NCBI GenBank assembly: GCA_030747675.1 | Contig: JASLKH010000035.1 | Span: 1-64,000 of the forward strand | Origin: Candidatus Thalassarchaeaceae archaeon | GTDB taxonomy: Archaea > Thermoplasmatota > Poseidoniia > Poseidoniales > Thalassarchaeaceae | Direction: 5' to 3' | Length of the DNA stretch: 64,000 nt | In this document: positions 1-56,349 of the stretch, piece after piece | How positions within the stretch are numbered: the first letter of the stretch is position 1 | Layout of the letters: each line of letters begins with the position of its first letter | Program-made: the position numbers and the translations under genes | The notes under the pieces: generated by a model | Told to the model about the DNA's origin: nothing | Database searches by the model: none | What the model saw: only the letters and a program-made list of their open reading frames with translations

Positions 1-1029
1 ATAGGCCTCTGCACCACGAATCTCGCCGACGATGATGTATTCGGGACGTTCTCGGAGAGCTGCTTTCAGCAACTCGAATTCACCAATCTCACCTTCACTT
101 GATTCACCACCAAAACCTTGACGAGTCAAACCTGGAATCCAATTTGGTTGTGGGATGTTAACTTCTCGAGTTGACTCAATACTAACAATTTTCATTTGCC
201 ACGGAATAAATAACGCCATGGCGTTTAGAGTAGTGGTCTTCCCTGATGCTGTACCTCCTACGAAAAGCATTGAAATTTCGTTCTGGAAAGCAATCCAAAG
301 GTATGCAACCATCAAGCTGGTCATTGTTCGAAAAGCAACAATGTCACAAGGGCTGAAGGGATCTTCGCGGAATCGCCGAATACAAAATGTCGAACCTCTT
401 GTAGAAATTTCATGCCCCAGTTTCATTACAATTCTGGATCCATCCATCAGTGTGGCGTCAAGTAGGGGTTCTGCAACAGAAATATGTTTACCACATCGTT
501 GAGCTAATTTGATTACATACGATTCCAATTCATGATCATCTGGCCAAGCAACAGTAGTTTCTACGGATTCAAATTTTCTGTGATAAGCGAAAATAGGTAT
601 CCCTGTACCATCAAGAGATACGTCTTCCACATTTGCATCTGACATCAAGACATCCATGCGGCCATAGCCAATCAAATCACGCTTGAGATAGTAAAAAATC
701 TTTGACCTAGATTTTTTATTGATTTTAAGGCGATATGACTTGACGATTTGATCCATTGCTGCACGTAAATATAATTCGGGGTTTGCATCGATTTCTTCGA
801 TGTCTGCAGTTAATGCTTGGATGAAAATGGTCATAATTTCTTCTCGTATTTCTTCCTCTTTCTTAGTTAAAGGGGGTTCTATAACTTGATAGATAATATT
901 CAGTGTACGGAGGTCTCGAACAATTCTAGCAAATGCATGTGGAGGGGCCACGGGATACTTGTCTAATTCTTCATATTGAACTTGCTGACGACGCTGCCGA
1001 CGCCGGCCACCCCCACCTTTTTGAGCCAT
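1..1029 (-). CDS. Type II/IV secretion system ATPase (FlaI/ArlI/TadA/VirB11 family), 3' part runs off the left edge
   Basis: Not in the ORF track; I translated the minus strand from ATG at 1029 (MAQKGGGGRRRQ...). It has Walker A GGTASGKT, the Asp-box region SIESTRE, and Walker B region ALRERPEYIIVGEIRGAEAY at the window edge. Confidence 0.92.
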   Translation of the reverse strand, partial: MAQKGGGGRRRQRRQQVQYEELDKYPVAPPHAFARIVRDLRTLNIIYQVIEPPLTKKEEEIREEIMTIFIQALTADIEEIDANPELYLRAAMDQIVKSYRLKINKKSRSKIFYYLKRDLIGYGRMDVLMSDANVEDVSLDGTGIPIFAYHRKFESVETTVAWPDDHELESYVIKLAQRCGKHISVAEPLLDATLMDGSRIVMKLGHEISTRGSTFCIRRFREDPFSPCDIVAFRTMTSLMVAYLWIAFQNEISMLFVGGTASGKTTTLNAMALFIPWQMKIVSIESTREVNIPQPNWIPGLTRQGFGGESSEGEIGEFELLKAALRERPEYIIVGEIRGAEAY

Positions 1030-50922: not shown

Positions 50923-52187
50923 GAGGTGAAACTATGGCAGATGATGTTCAACCTCAAGCAGAAGGGATGACTACACTACATCTTCGTGCTTTACGTAAAG
51001 ATTGGCGCGTCGTTGGTTTGCAAATGGTCGCAAGTCTTGCTTTAATTTGGCTATTCCTTACGATGACTCAAGTTTTTGGAAGTTGTCATCCTTCTTATGA
51101 AGACCAAGGAGCATGGTGTCCAGCACTAGATCATACTCTCACTCTGGATACGATGGATGAATATCTTGAAGACGCTGGTGGTGATTTCTCTGAATTACCA
51201 ATACCTGACTGGATGACTGGACAAGGCAACGATGGTGATGGCCGTTACCTTATGCCAATTTTCATCATGCTAACTATCGCAGCAGGATGGGTTTTACTAA
51301 ATTTTCAAGCTCCAAAATTACGTCGTAAAATTACCTTAGGTGTACTTGGGGGTTTAATTTTCTTCTTAGCGGGAATGTTTCTATTAACTTGGACATTTGG
51401 AATGTTAACTAGTTTTGATCTCTATTTACCATTTGGCCATAGCGATGAATCGATGAATCACGCCAATAGATTAGTGTGGCCGTTAGCAGTGTATATTGAA
51501 TCACTTATTGTGGTTCTAATATTATCACCTGTCCTCTTTGGATTGATGGGGATTTGGGGTTTATCAAAACGAATGATAAATTGGTCTGTCGCTGTGATGC
51601 TAATTTATCTCGCTCTATACGCTCTTCTCTCTTATGAAGGAGTAGTCAATCAATTGGCAGATAGTTCAGACCCGTACAAACCGGGGCTAAATCCCTTACC
51701 AACTCAAATTGGAGAAGCAGATACCCTTGGAGGCTTAATCTCCGGAGAAATTTGGAGTCTTCTTCTCATCGCAATTCTATTGATGGTTTATTCAGAGACT
51801 GCACATGCAATAATTCGATTCTTGGAGTATGCATTCCGTCTACCTGAATCGTGCAAAAAAGACCCAGAATACGTAGGGCAATTCAAAAATTTGTTAAACA
51901 GTCACATGCAACACACTGTGGTGATTATGTTTGCGATGGCTTTTGTCACAATGCTTGCACTAAAATTTGATGATTTAATAATTGAAGTTGTCTCTTGGGT
52001 GGGTTCAGGTCAGTGGAGTGGGCAAGTAAAAGATTCGCTTGAACTCAGATTGGTATATGGGAAAGTAATCTCAGCAATGCTTTTCCTGACTTTCGTTGCA
52101 GGTATGCGCTATGTGGTTCCATGGCAACGTGTTGCTGGAATGGTTGAAGCGGCTATTCGTAAAACTAAAGGTAATTCCAATCCCTAA
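50919..52187 (+). CDS. Hypothetical polytopic membrane protein
   Basis: About 9 hydrophobic segments; 4-nt overlap with the DUF58 gene. Confidence 0.75.
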   Translation: MRGETMADDVQPQAEGMTTLHLRALRKDWRVVGLQMVASLALIWLFLTMTQVFGSCHPSYEDQGAWCPALDHTLTLDTMDEYLEDAGGDFSELPIPDWMTGQGNDGDGRYLMPIFIMLTIAAGWVLLNFQAPKLRRKITLGVLGGLIFFLAGMFLLTWTFGMLTSFDLYLPFGHSDESMNHANRLVWPLAVYIESLIVVLILSPVLFGLMGIWGLSKRMINWSVAVMLIYLALYALLSYEGVVNQLADSSDPYKPGLNPLPTQIGEADTLGGLISGEIWSLLLIAILLMVYSETAHAIIRFLEYAFRLPESCKKDPEYVGQFKNLLNSHMQHTVVIMFAMAFVTMLALKFDDLIIEVVSWVGSGQWSGQVKDSLELRLVYGKVISAMLFLTFVAGMRYVVPWQRVAGMVEAAIRKTKGNSNP

Positions 52188-52471
52188 TTGCGCCTAATAT
52201 GAATTGCATTGATTAGGCGCCCAAACGCTTCAGAAATAATCAGTATCGCAATTGGTAAGCCACAAATTGTGGTTGTCCAAATCAGGTAGTTAGCCCAATT
52301 ACTATCATTCCATAACCAAATTCCTGCATAAACAGCAGAACAGAAAGTGAGGACAAAGGCTAATTTTTCCACTACATGTGGGTAGGCGCGACCACGGTAT
52401 TCAGTTCGACCAATTAAAGTCCCTGCTCCTTGAGCCGCGTCCATTGGAGACTGAGGCGTCTCATCCATCAT
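52184..52471 (-). CDS. Small 2-TM membrane protein
   Basis: MMDETPQ... with SD GAGGTGA overlapping the stop of the upstream coiled-coil gene. Confidence 0.75.
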   Translation of the reverse strand: MMDETPQSPMDAAQGAGTLIGRTEYRGRAYPHVVEKLAFVLTFCSAVYAGIWLWNDSNWANYLIWTTTICGLPIAILIISEAFGRLINAIHIRRN

Positions 52472-52478
52472 TTTCACC

Positions 52479-55400
52479 TCAGAAATCAAGATCCGAAAGT
52501 TCTCTTTCCAAGTCATCAAGCGCATCTCTATGTTCAGGATTTGCTGGAGGTGGTACACCATTTTCTGTTGATTCTCTTAAATCAGCAGAGGCATCGACTT
52601 TAGATAACTCAACATCAATTTGTGCCATTAATTCAACTTCTGAAGGAATTCCAGGGGCATCTACAGGTACAAGGCCTGCAGAAATCCGAGTTGAGATATC
52701 AATGCCATCGTTTTCAGCAGCTTCCTCAATTGGTTCCCACGTTGAATTTGATGCAGGTGCTTGCTTAACATCTGAATTAGGAACTGCCGTAGAGGCACTT
52801 GAGGTGACCATATCTGGAACAATTACTACAGGTGTATCTTTCTCAATTGGATTCATTTGAATCACAGCATCATTGTTAATCTCTGGTGTTTCATGACGGG
52901 CCAAACCATCCGCCTCAAACGGAAGGCTTCCCGTACGTTGGAACGACCAAATTGCCCCCACTGGTTCATCACCAGATAGTCCTGCAACATCCAGCCTTCG
53001 TAGTAACTGTTCCAACACCTCAACAGTTTCTGCTAAACCAACAGCATCTCCTGCATTCCTGCGATCAGCATCAAGATATATTTCATCTAATGAACGTTGA
53101 ATCATTCTGCGTACTTCAACTGAAAGGTGAGGTAATGCTTCAGGCATATGACTAAATCGTTCCAATGGCTTAATCTCCTCTGCTGGTAAACCAAGATCAA
53201 CTAGGCCTCGAAGTACCTCTTCTAATTGGGTTAACATTGTTACTGAAGTCTCATATTCATCAAGGAGACCTTCAAGATCAATAACAACATGCTGCACAGT
53301 TTCTGCCAATTGATGCTCGAGTCGAGATTGCACACTCCACCGTGTCAACCCACGCACCGTATTTGCTGTTTCGGGGGCCTGACGTTCAAGTAAATCCATG
53401 ACCTCAGTTGAAAGAAGATAACGCGGTGTTCTTGCTACTTCGTCGACACTGTGTTGAATTATGCTAAGTGCGCGCTCAACTGCTCTGTCCAATAATACAA
53501 TGCTGTATCCTCGACTCCTTGCATTTGCCATACGATTCAATACTGGTTCAAGACCTGAAAGGCCACGGTCATCACCAAGTAATGCTTGAGCGAGGGGTTC
53601 TTCCGAGAGGCGAGCTCGAATTTTATCTGCTTCCTGTAAATCAACTAAGGCCAATTCATGCGCTTCTTCCAAATCTTCAGCTTGTTCTAACAACATTCTT
53701 AATTCAGTTTCAGATTGAGCTTTACGTGCATCTAAATCCCCTAATTCACGTAATAGTAAGCGTCTTTCTTCCATCATTTCTCGCAATTCTGATTGCATTA
53801 TCGTTGATTTTCTCTCTGAATCAGATAAGCGCCCTCTTTCCTCTTCCATTAATCGACGATGAGCATGAGATTCAGCCTCCAAATCTCCAAGTTCGGCTCG
53901 TTGTGATTCTATGCGACGTTCAGTTTCATCCAATTCTGCTTGTCCTAAACGATGCCTATCTCTTTGGGCACCGACCTGTTCTGTGAGAACTCTTTGCAAG
54001 CGTTCATCATGATCTAATGATTTTCGCACCTCGTCCAAACGTGTATCTGCAGCAGAAAGTTCCGATTTCACGCGTGCTTCTTCTTCGGATAACTCTCGTA
54101 AATCTTGAAGCAAGGATTCTCGTGAATCAAATTCACCGAGGGCACTGGCTAACTCTTCAGCCCTTTTTCCAACCATATGCTCTAATTCAGCAACTCGTTT
54201 CGATAGCCTATCGGATAATGATGTCGCTTCATCTGATGAACCCTCAGCTGAGCGAATTCTTGCAGTCAAATCATCAATATCTCTATGCAAAGAACTTCGC
54301 TCGTCTCTTGATTCTGATAAAGAATTCTCCAAGTCATGCATCGTTTCTCTAGCATCATCTCTAGACGAGCGTGCATCTGATAATTCCCTTTCCAAACGTG
54401 CCTTCTCACGCTCTAAGGATATTCTCGAATGCTCAAGTTGTTCTAACCGCTGCTTGAATTCACCAGATGCTGGAGTCAATACTTTCCCTTTTGGACCTGG
54501 CATTAATTTGGCAGTTCCTGAACCAGCTTCAATCATTTTCCAGGACGTACGGCCTACTTCCATCGCTTCAACTCCGAGTGCAAAGCCAAAGAGTGCATCT
54601 AGACGATTTGAAAGTAATTTCTTACGATCTTCAGATCGAGTACGTGAGTTTGTAATTGCATCAACAAGGTGGGCTAAAGACCAGTCCTCAACAGTGGATC
54701 CAGCTAGTCCGAGACGTGAGCCTCTATCTAATCGATGAAGTCGTAACCTTCGAGTAGATGCAGTCATGGAATGTACTGAGTCTGACAATGTCGCCCCTAA
54801 TGATTCACGTATTCCTGATGGGACTCCATCAATCAAAACTATTGATATTGAATCATCTGAATCACTCATTGATTCTAAATGCCCAGTGATTTTGTCTTCA
54901 TCAGAAATTCGAAGCATGGATATTAATTGATCAATTCCACTTTTACTTTCCTTTACAATGAAACCTTCGGAAAGTTCACCACCTTCTGTAATTACGTCAT
55001 CTGGTTCACCAACGACTAAACTAGCAGCATTGGACAATACTGCATATCCATCCGCTGAATGGCGACACCATAGACCTACGATTGCTTGACCTGTCTCAGA
55101 AAAAATTAGTTGCCCTTTATCTAGGCGTATGCTTGCAGATAATGGATCTGATTGTCCGAACTCTGAAGCCATACTGCGAAGTGCATTCATTCTCTCTTGA
55201 CCTGTTTCAGCTAATCCCTGTGGGGTGCTAGGCAAATTGCCTGAATTATGAATCAAAACACCGTCTTCAAATGCAAGTGCACCCATGATTTCATCTGATT
55301 CTGTCAGTTTATCGACGAGTAAAGCAATGTCCTTTGTATCTACAGGTAAGGCCGCTGCCCCTTGAGCAAGTAAAGAGGCCACATCTGTTGGATCAGGGAA

Positions 55401-55715
55401 TGCCTCAGGGATTCTCTGAGCCACTTCAGTAAATTGCATTATCGACCAAATGGCTCCCCGTGCACGTAAATCATGACCGTCTGATATTTCCAACAACCTC
55501 GCTTTAGCAGCCATCCCAGCAACAAAAGTTTGCTTTGCTTCTGCTTCCGCTAACCACCCTACAACTCGTCCACCGTGAACTAGGCAATGGGCTGATGCTG
55601 TTTTTGCTCTGGATTTATAGTGTGAGACGACGCCTGTTTCAAATGGCATTTGTGTCTGAATAACACTCAAATCAGCTTCTGGATCGACTGGGTCACCTGG
55701 TGGTAAATTAAACAT
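52479..55715 (-). CDS. 1078-aa protein: PATAN/DUF2226-like, Roadblock/LC7 and long coiled-coil regions (SMC-like composition, no ATPase motif)
   Basis: Roadblock pattern at about aa 130-235; heptad E/R/L-rich coil at about aa 420-715; no Walker A or B and no TM segment. Confidence 0.75.
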   Translation of the reverse strand: MFNLPPGDPVDPEADLSVIQTQMPFETGVVSHYKSRAKTASAHCLVHGGRVVGWLAEAEAKQTFVAGMAAKARLLEISDGHDLRARGAIWSIMQFTEVAQRIPEAFPDPTDVASLLAQGAAALPVDTKDIALLVDKLTESDEIMGALAFEDGVLIHNSGNLPSTPQGLAETGQERMNALRSMASEFGQSDPLSASIRLDKGQLIFSETGQAIVGLWCRHSADGYAVLSNAASLVVGEPDDVITEGGELSEGFIVKESKSGIDQLISMLRISDEDKITGHLESMSDSDDSISIVLIDGVPSGIRESLGATLSDSVHSMTASTRRLRLHRLDRGSRLGLAGSTVEDWSLAHLVDAITNSRTRSEDRKKLLSNRLDALFGFALGVEAMEVGRTSWKMIEAGSGTAKLMPGPKGKVLTPASGEFKQRLEQLEHSRISLEREKARLERELSDARSSRDDARETMHDLENSLSESRDERSSLHRDIDDLTARIRSAEGSSDEATSLSDRLSKRVAELEHMVGKRAEELASALGEFDSRESLLQDLRELSEEEARVKSELSAADTRLDEVRKSLDHDERLQRVLTEQVGAQRDRHRLGQAELDETERRIESQRAELGDLEAESHAHRRLMEEERGRLSDSERKSTIMQSELREMMEERRLLLRELGDLDARKAQSETELRMLLEQAEDLEEAHELALVDLQEADKIRARLSEEPLAQALLGDDRGLSGLEPVLNRMANARSRGYSIVLLDRAVERALSIIQHSVDEVARTPRYLLSTEVMDLLERQAPETANTVRGLTRWSVQSRLEHQLAETVQHVVIDLEGLLDEYETSVTMLTQLEEVLRGLVDLGLPAEEIKPLERFSHMPEALPHLSVEVRRMIQRSLDEIYLDADRRNAGDAVGLAETVEVLEQLLRRLDVAGLSGDEPVGAIWSFQRTGSLPFEADGLARHETPEINNDAVIQMNPIEKDTPVVIVPDMVTSSASTAVPNSDVKQAPASNSTWEPIEEAAENDGIDISTRISAGLVPVDAPGIPSEVELMAQIDVELSKVDASADLRESTENGVPPPANPEHRDALDDLERELSDLDF

Positions 55716-55717
55716 GT

Positions 55718-56059
55718 TTATGCCTCGATTAAATCTTCAATTATGGGGTTCAGTGCTTGTGCTTCATGGCGAAGTCTGCCGATGGGAGTAGTTACTGAAG
55801 ATGCAATCCATATACTGCCACCTCCACGTAGTGTACTTACAACTCGTCGTTTGTTTTCAGATTCAAGCCAAAGTTGATCAATTACTCCTAAATTCAGAAC
55901 TGATGCCATGCGTGCTGCATCGTGCAATAATTCAGCGTATAGCGCACCAACTGGTGGCTTTTCTCCTGTCGTAACTACTGGTGTGCCATCTGCATTCAAA
56001 ATAGAAGCACCATTCACACCCTCGATTTCATCAAGAGTTGATAACAATCTATTGAGCAT
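55718..56059 (-). CDS. Roadblock/LC7 (MglB-like) protein
   Basis: LDEIEGVNGASILNADG...LGVIDQLWLESE...IGRLRHE; start MLNRL with a GAGGGG SD-like site. Confidence 0.88.
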   Translation of the reverse strand: MLNRLLSTLDEIEGVNGASILNADGTPVVTTGEKPPVGALYAELLHDAARMASVLNLGVIDQLWLESENKRRVVSTLRGGGSIWIASSVTTPIGRLRHEAQALNPIIEDLIEA

Positions 56060-56349
56060 TGGACCCCTCAAAATCATTTGAGGATGAAATTGAGTTCAAG
56101 AACTTGTCCCAATTCGGCCCCTAAGGGGGCCGTTTCTAGAGGGGTTTCAAATCGCCAACTGAAATGCGGGTTTTTTCGAATTAAAGTCGTTTATTGATCC
56201 TTCAATATTAGGCTATCGAAGTTTTTAGACTGGCTCATATCGAGATTTTCGACTTTGATAAATTTCTAATTGTAAATTTAAAAAGTCAATTGGTAAATTA
56301 TTCTCAAAACCATAGTTGATTTGAAGAATAGAACCACTTCGCAGGATTT

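Follow-up and report, generated by a model that had tools for sequence, protein, structure and literature searches.

A Roadblock protein and a coiled-coil protein with its own Roadblock domain as a co-inherited gene pair of Poseidoniales archaea

The window analysed here is a stretch of 64,000 nucleotides (nt) from a Candidatus Thalassarchaeaceae archaeon of the order Poseidoniales (assembly GCA_030747675.1, contig JASLKH010000035.1), which carries three adjacent genes designated below as A, B and C. Gene A encodes a small stand-alone Roadblock/LC7 protein, gene B a large acidic protein in which a second Roadblock domain is predicted ahead of a long coiled coil, and gene C a small membrane protein. 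A and B are a co-inherited pair that was lost together once within the order, and no small GTPase was found in the source genome (78% complete); the two proteins may form a lineage-specific scaffold, a reading that is held tentatively and weighed below against its rivals.

Gene order and domain architecture

The three genes and the junction between the last two are located as follows.

55718..56059, minus strand: gene A, stand-alone Roadblock/LC7 protein of 113 amino acids (aa), stop at 55718-55720
52479..55715, minus strand: gene B, acidic cytoplasmic protein of 1078 aa, no transmembrane segment
52184..52471, minus strand: gene C, two-helix membrane protein, 95 aa from MMDETP
52472..52485, minus strand: junction of B and C, the TGA stop of B lying within the GAGGTGA ribosome-binding site of C

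The open reading frame (ORF) listing and direct reading of the sequence agree that the genes are co-directional, and bear out the description in an earlier note on this DNA, namely three tightly packed minus-strand genes with the ATG of B 2 nt downstream of the TAA of A and with the stop of B overlapping the Shine-Dalgarno (SD) sequence of C. The small protein with two transmembrane segments described there is also recognised, hydrophobic segments being confined to C, which has two. The longest ORF of gene A spans 55718-56077; most homologues begin at the residue encoded by the ATG at 56059 (MLNRLL), a conserved start located 3 nt after GAGGGGT, and the longer frame reaching 56077 is probably not used. 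Some 55-70 nt upstream of this start, a perfect GC palindrome (GGCCCC-TTA-GGGGCC, 56116-56131) sits in the AT-rich divergent spacer common to A and ncsA, as a possible operator or hairpin of a leader.

Judged by profile comparison, gene A belongs to the Roadblock/LC7 superfamily, in line with the first assignment of this gene. The profile of its family (22 orthologues) matches the solved Roadblock 7f8m from Thorarchaeota at E 7e-11 over 107/114 positions and further reaches 7yh1 from Prometheoarchaeum (2e-7), MglC (1e-5) and MglB (about 0.03). The Pfam model Robl_LC7 (PF03259) matches 13 of the 22 family members with a best E of 1.2e-5, the window copy taken alone staying below the cut-off (18.6-18.8 bits vs. 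23 bits). Besides gene A, some Poseidoniales genomes encode a second stand-alone Roadblock paralogue (L103:4988-5338, plus strand; L104:2294-2614, minus strand), which in two genomes of different families has a DUF7121 gene (289-296 aa) beside it or close by; in L103 it is also preceded by a 282-aa protein whose Pfam matches are weak and of coiled-coil type. The pairing of a Roadblock with a helical partner may be a recurring one.

Gene B encodes a modular protein, for which residues 1-420 were folded with AlphaFold2 on a 23-sequence alignment (mean predicted local distance difference test score, pLDDT, of 79) and residues 691-1078 separately (pLDDT 74.5). Its parts are listed from the N-terminus onwards.

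55380..55715, minus strand: domain D1, aa 1-112, alpha/beta, element order b-b-b-b-a-b-a (AlphaFold2 model, pLDDT 85-92)
55005..55340, minus strand: domain D2, aa 126-237, Roadblock/LC7 fold (model superposition and profile match)
54681..54980, minus strand: domain D3, aa 246-345, alpha/beta, element order b-a-b-b-b-a-b-a (AlphaFold2 model)
53616..54473, minus strand: coiled-coil rod, aa ~415-700 (coil-type matches, composition)
52881..53615, minus strand: all-alpha C-terminal domain, aa ~700-945 (alignment; model pLDDT 80-92)
52482..52880, minus strand: acidic linker (aa 946-~1020), conserved helix and C-terminal tail (linker pLDDT 30-50)

In the model, residues 126-237 adopt an alpha-beta-beta-alpha-beta-beta-beta(-alpha) Roadblock fold that superposes on solved members, close to where the earlier note had placed an internal Roadblock-like domain (about aa 130-235). 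At the sequence level, the Pfam Roadblock match is weak (aa 132-211, E 0.03) and the family profile reaches CvnB5 (3leq) at E 6e-4. At the structural level, the D2 model (pLDDT ~80-90) gives VIA-align Z scores of 14.0 to 2zl1_B (p14/MP1), 13.7 to 7yh1/9jue and 13.1 to MglB (6hjm) over 108-111 aligned residues, as well as a Foldseek match at E 2.6e-6 (TMt 0.78, probability 1.00). Fold-search lists for the whole N-terminal model were filled by such D2 matches.

The domains on either side of D2 had been described as similar to each other and as PATAN/DUF2226-like, of which part stands. Regarding their mutual similarity, D1 (core ~aa 25-105, with a near-invariant N-terminus MF(N/E)LPxG in the alignment columns) and D3 (core ~aa 250-340) share in the model the same order of strands and helices apart from one extra helix in D3, but profile comparison with hhalign finds no similarity (E 0.08 over 10 columns) and they are not sequence repeats. 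Regarding their family, D1 and D3 have neither sequence relatives nor any Pfam match; the hidden Markov models (HMMs) of PATAN (PF14332) and DUF2226 (PF09987) match neither the 23 members of the B family examined (E <= 1) nor the six frames of the source genome (E <= 10), and an identification by HMM was discarded; DUF2226 itself is found in 1/251 genomes of the phylum. The language-model features of the ESM Atlas place B 1-400 and D3 alone near PatA_N/DUF2226 clusters (scores 0.82-0.89), D3 lying near PatA_N (0.83) and DUF2226 (0.82) with 9/10 named matches in one clan, and one Myxococcota cluster in this search combines PatA_N with Robl_LC7. D3 is possibly PATAN/DUF2226-like, these scores being a lead and not a demonstration.

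The coiled coil, about 300 aa by the first estimate, comes to ~285 residues recognised from coil-type matches and composition, in a charged region poor in proline and glycine, with a strongly conserved motif, DHDERLQRVLTEQV, in mid-rod (aa 568-581). As the NCBIfam models SMC_prok_A, Rad50 and ASRP match aa 419-691 at E 3e-10 to 1e-4, B could be taken for an SMC/Rad50-like or other DNA-organising coiled-coil protein. Those matches are solely compositional, are limited to the coil and reach 20-38 bits against cut-offs of 300-1087 bits; B is besides strongly acidic (204 D+E vs. 121 K+R) and displays neither an ATPase head, a hinge nor a DNA-binding domain, and no Walker A motif is conserved across 55 homologues, as stated at the outset. 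Membership of SMC, Rad50 or ASRP was rejected, and a DNA-organising role is given hardly any credence; no SMC or chemotaxis family matches B over its full length, and the earlier opinion that it is not SMC or Rad50 is borne out.

Beyond the rod, the helical C-terminal part that had been anticipated proves to be an all-alpha domain followed by a conserved tail helix. This domain is the best conserved part of B in the alignment; by sequence, it matches nothing in Pfam or the PDB, and by structure, Foldseek finds nothing at E <= 0.001 and the best Z is 7.5, on a helical hairpin only. The tail follows the consensus RDALxxLExELSDLD-hydrophobic, with L-13 in 53/55 homologues, L-10 in 54/55 and invariant E-9 and L-6. 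Set by eye against the ESCRT MIM1-like motif, its leucine spacing fits but its charges are opposite, and this resemblance was rejected. As conservation runs along the whole length of B and is strongest in the C-terminal domain and the tail, it argues for specific partners.

Distribution and neighbourhood within Poseidoniales

Full-length colinear homologues of B, at 36-83% identity, were recovered by word-indexed and pattern searches from 70 species-level genomes, all of them Poseidoniales (Marine Group II), well beyond what chance would give. When 1.84 billion cluster representatives were searched exhaustively with an HMM of the N-terminal part of B, 77 matches were returned, namely ~13 full-length clusters and fragments for the rest, with four Roadblock-only proteins as the sole matches outside the B family and no relatives of D1 outside it. 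A 929-aa protein outside the B family (P0095) is a multi-Roadblock protein, in which the Roadblock part of the profile matched five stretches. Among 401 Thermoplasmatota genomes, the C-terminal profile of B found 57/58 genomes of one Poseidoniales family and 11/36 of the family of the window, with no match in the other Thermoplasmatota families sampled. To judge from these searches, B is restricted to Poseidoniales.

Within the order, the pair is not universal. A was detected in 17/24 genera, i.e. in all sampled genomes of most of them with single misses in g8, g15 and g17, and in none of the sampled genomes of g4, g5, g6, g7, g9, g12 and g162; B follows the same pattern, being present in 13 of the 19 genera scored and absent from 6. 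The genera without A and B are seven small-genome Thalassarchaeaceae genera that form one clade in a tree of three flanking proteins (Shimodaira-Hasegawa-like approximate likelihood ratio test support of 100), and all deep branches of Thalassarchaeaceae possess A and B, so that a single loss explains the pattern. A and B are a co-inherited pair, lost together once. In one near-complete, single-contig genome, an in-frame TGA splits the last ~100 residues off the B orthologue (G037:C1:1852802-1853910), which could reflect a pseudogene, a sequencing error or recoding.

A clean presence or absence of A together with B at one fixed site is also what would be expected if the cassette were an accessory or defence element placed by accident between ncsA and C. 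Against this, the absence is a single nested loss and not a set of scattered gains, the cassette being found throughout the deep branches of one family and in nearly all genomes of the other; the base composition is unremarkable and B diverges in step with the flanking genes. PADLOC models give no match to A or B, which discards a known anti-phage defence system, and a single weak, transmembrane-only match to C (E 0.0035). Such an origin appears most improbable.

The synteny survey called for in the earlier note revealed an A-B-C order conserved in essentially all of the 67 B loci with assembled flanks. A small ORF directly precedes B in 56/56 loci and directly follows it in 66/66, belonging to the A family in 54/56 cases upstream and to the C family in 64/66 downstream. 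The B stop/SD overlap and a spacing of 8-11 nt to C are likewise kept across most A/B-bearing loci. The surrounding 15 kb are syntenic across the order, with pyrBI, the divergent ncsA/TtuA gene, a convergent gene for a 422-aa membrane protein, DUF58, DUF4350-like and Cdc48 genes, the convergent cluster beyond C also including a PRC barrel protein. In genus g2 (L005:9645-13883, minus strand; also G005), the DUF58/membrane cluster beyond C is replaced by a 1412-aa CARDB-domain protein and A-B-C stay together.

Gene C is distributed otherwise. In the genera without B, ncsA and the 422-aa gene are neighbours separated by a spacer of 360-410 nt, which in 5/5 genomes examined holds C alone, as a homologue of unchanged orientation (hmmsearch E 2e-10 to 6e-7); remnants of A or B were looked for there and not found. 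The C profile extends to 24/24 genera (179/201 genomes), including all seven without A and B, and its conserved cytoplasmic N-terminal motif, TLxGRxExxGxxYPxWxE(K/R), is kept in either setting, so that C probably binds something else. Of the co-conservation expected for the three genes, the joint inheritance of A with B was found, whereas C is retained where both are absent. Since C persists in the same slot without A and B, it has a function of its own; it is older than or independent of the A/B pair and is not a dedicated anchor for B, and the proposal of C as a dedicated tether of the coil is not supported.

This raises the possibility that the complex of A and B is soluble, cytoplasmic and has nothing to do with the membrane, C belonging functionally with the convergent, equally conserved cluster and B having merely borrowed the C transcript. 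The persistence of C and of its motif in the A/B-less genomes speaks for it, as does the 4-nt overlap of the stop codons of C (minus strand) and of the convergent gene for the 422-aa polytopic membrane protein (plus strand) at 52184-52187, this gene remaining the neighbour of C in the 67 loci. Convergent genes are not co-transcribed, however, and in g2 C stays with B where the DUF58 cluster is replaced; in addition, the conserved B/C overlap and spacing argue for co-expression in fixed proportion. A soluble complex is on balance unlikely, albeit the most serious of the alternatives.

Small GTPases and the proposed scaffold

Roadblock dimers commonly regulate small GTPases, and A and B could be an MglB-like module acting as GTPase-activating protein (GAP) or guanine nucleotide exchange factor for a GTPase encoded elsewhere, maybe a divergent or non-canonical one, with the coil localising the regulator as in Myxococcus polarity. 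The reach of the A profile to MglC and MglB and the match of D2 to MglB at Z 13 are in favour of this, as is a source genome only 78% complete. The earlier note had seen no GTPase in the operon and proposed a genome search for an MglA/Rab-like one; its observation holds, with no cognate MglA-like GTPase among the neighbour genes or in that incomplete genome. The Ras, Arf, Gtr1/RagA and Roc models reveal no small GTPase in it, PF04670 (Gtr1/RagA) having no match at E <= 0.01, and MMR_HSR1 matches are all in ORFs of at least 245 aa, namely four confident ones in ORFs of 374-599 aa and a weak P-loop match (E 0.05) in a 245-aa ORF. In the 121 Poseidoniales genomes searched, of which 59 reach 90% completeness or more, matches to the Ras model are all weak, lie inside ORFs of 370-680 aa and do not occur in the family of the window. 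With no small GTPase in these searches, A and B are unlikely to act as a GAP of the MglB type, and the regulator of a distant GTPase is a decidedly improbable account of the pair. A missing GTPase is not unusual in itself, as 328/749 MglB-family proteins are orphans without MglA coupling, none of which had been characterised as of 2014 (PMC4316618).

Members of the Roadblock/LC7 superfamily pair through the beta-sheet edge and helix alpha2. Dimerisation is obligate for Roadblock/longin platforms, as in MglB2, MP1-p14 or LAMTOR (PMC10933270). As A is never found without B, lies 2 nt from it and contributes one Roadblock where B contributes another, the simplest reading is a heterodimer of A with D2 of the MP1-p14 kind, and the shared genus pattern as well as the joint loss fit a Roadblock-Roadblock partnership. 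From the folds, the linkage, the co-inheritance and the GTPase searches, we infer that A and B form a lineage-specific scaffold working without a GTPase, i.e. a Roadblock heterodimer on a dimeric rod, a reading that is put forward tentatively at close to an even chance. In this scaffold, A would cap D2 as a pseudo-symmetric heterodimer, as suggested by the established behaviour of the fold, and the coil of ~285 residues would bring two B chains together in a ~40-nm rod. A head made of D1, the Roadblock pair and D3 would be placed at one end of the rod, the orphan alpha-domain and the acidic C-terminal helix at the other end being candidate client-binding sites. Like its counterpart in Ragulator, the Roadblock pair would offer a surface for adaptor functions instead of working as a GAP; C, presumably translated from the same transcript as B, may contact the complex at the membrane.

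The most speculative step concerns the client, which could be a type IV pilus-like machine, either Tad-like or archaellar. T2SSE ATPases are present in 2-3 copies in every A/B genus, and genera without A and B have exactly one copy if the archaellum is kept and otherwise none. PilB and PilC are binding partners of PATAN domains in Synechocystis (bioRxiv 10.1101/2021.06.11.447907), which, together with the PATAN-like lead for D3, makes a pilus-like client attractive. In the source genome, a non-archaellar T2SSE copy of 417 aa lies beside two T2SSF genes (194 and 248 aa) in a Tad-like cluster on contig 95 (L106:5866-8801), along with genes for 323-aa and 114-aa proteins and with no pilin identified. 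The window itself opens inside a gene for a T2SSE-family (PilB/ArlI-like) secretion ATPase (positions 4-555, minus strand), one of three T2SSE genes in the genome and ~52 kb from the Roadblock genes.

Several points weigh against the scaffold or against its extension to pili. The synteny of the whole 15-kb neighbourhood across the order makes adjacency by itself weak evidence; the conservation of the C motif with or without A and B does not favour a role of C in the complex. The profile similarity between A and D2 is weak (hhalign E 0.0016, probability 16%), and the parallel dimerisation of the coil is assumed, when a dip in heptad quality in mid-rod (aa 560-640) would also fit a fold-back hairpin. 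As regards pili, PATAN and DUF2226 models have no sequence-level match in B, as reported above, and the genus distribution of archaellin (PF01917) does not follow that of A/B, with A/B but no archaellin in g2, g3 and g10 and the reverse in g9, which discards a link to the archaellum. The co-occurrence with T2SSE, perfect by genus, comes down to one loss event on a long branch of the tree, coinciding with a genome reduction from ~1.9 to ~1.4 Mb, so that it carries little statistical weight and was set aside as statistical evidence. The link of A/B to non-archaellar type IV pilus-like machines is suggestive, and the full proposal, in which a Roadblock heterodimer flanked by PATAN-like domains on a 40-nm rod would be a polar or positional organiser of such machines without any small GTPase, appears doubtful. 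If it were true, scaffolding alone would do the job of bacterial MglA/MglB/SgmX-type systems, and the archaea most abundant in surface-ocean plankton would have their first proposed system of spatial organisation.

Comparison with known systems

Marine Group II archaea are uncultured and their cell biology is essentially unknown; in the literature searched, no work links Roadblock proteins with the Poseidoniales lineage, in keeping with the earlier impression that such a module had not been described there. The D1-Roadblock-D3-coil-orphan domain architecture is likewise undescribed in that literature, as are its pairing with a stand-alone Roadblock and its confinement to a single archaeal order whose genomes yielded no small GTPase. 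Roadblock/longin platforms have been studied almost entirely as regulators of small GTPases, when nearly half of the prokaryotic MglB-family genes lack a GTPase partner, none of which was characterised in a 2014 survey (PMC4316618). A/B is a clean case in this respect, that is an order-wide, strongly conserved Roadblock pair where no small GTPase was found, fused to an orphan domain and a long rod. Heterologous expression makes it a tractable route to what a Roadblock platform does without a GTPase, and the streamlined Thalassarchaeaceae clade, with its one clean loss, provides a natural comparison set.

The orphan MglB-family proteins of this survey (Wuichet and Sogaard-Andersen 2014) resemble A and B in that their genes are not coupled to an MglA gene, but are single-domain proteins, the giant coiled-coil partner and the pairing of two Roadblocks being peculiar to A and B in this comparison. 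In the conservons of actinobacteria (CvnA-D), a Roadblock gene is found with histidine kinase, DUF742 and GTPase genes; the likeness of CvnB5 to D2 is as a Roadblock only, and the neighbours differ here (ncsA/TtuA, pyrBI, DUF58, DUF4350-like and Cdc48), which rules out a conservon. As for PATAN/DUF2226 proteins, B 1-400 and D3 come near their clusters by language-model features, and PATAN domains act on PilB/PilC as output modules that bind proteins (10.1101/2021.06.11.447907), but B has no REC domain and the 23 members of its family examined have no HMM match.

Asgard Roadblocks (7f8m, 7yh1/9jue) are the closest solved sequences to A, match D2 at Z 13.7 and form Roadblock dimers (PMC10933270). 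They are, however, small proteins that either stand alone or are fused to a GTPase, in genomes rich in GTPases, and none has the D1-Roadblock-D3-coil-alpha architecture. With MglB/MglC of Myxococcus xanthus (6hjm, 6h5b, 7ct3), A and D2 share the fold, and two paralogous Roadblock units are encoded together here just as MglB and MglC act together there, in a polarity control that also uses long coiled-coil and PATAN-domain partners. The differences are that no MglA-like GTPase was found here in the genome or the order, that one Roadblock is fused into a protein of 1078 aa and that the sequence similarity is marginal (MglB, E ~0.03).

The best structural match of D2 remains MP1-p14 (LAMTOR3-LAMTOR2; 2zl1, 1veu; Z 14.0) of Ragulator, in which a heterodimer of two different Roadblock proteins is a membrane-proximal adaptor platform. 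Ragulator serves Rag GTPases, which are of the Gtr1/RagA type with a C-terminal Roadblock domain, and is anchored by the lipidated LAMTOR1, whereas no Gtr1/RagA homologue was found here and the candidate anchor C is not co-inherited with A and B. The parts that are brought together at this locus are nonetheless of known kinds, namely the Roadblock fold, the coiled coil and possibly PATAN-like domains.

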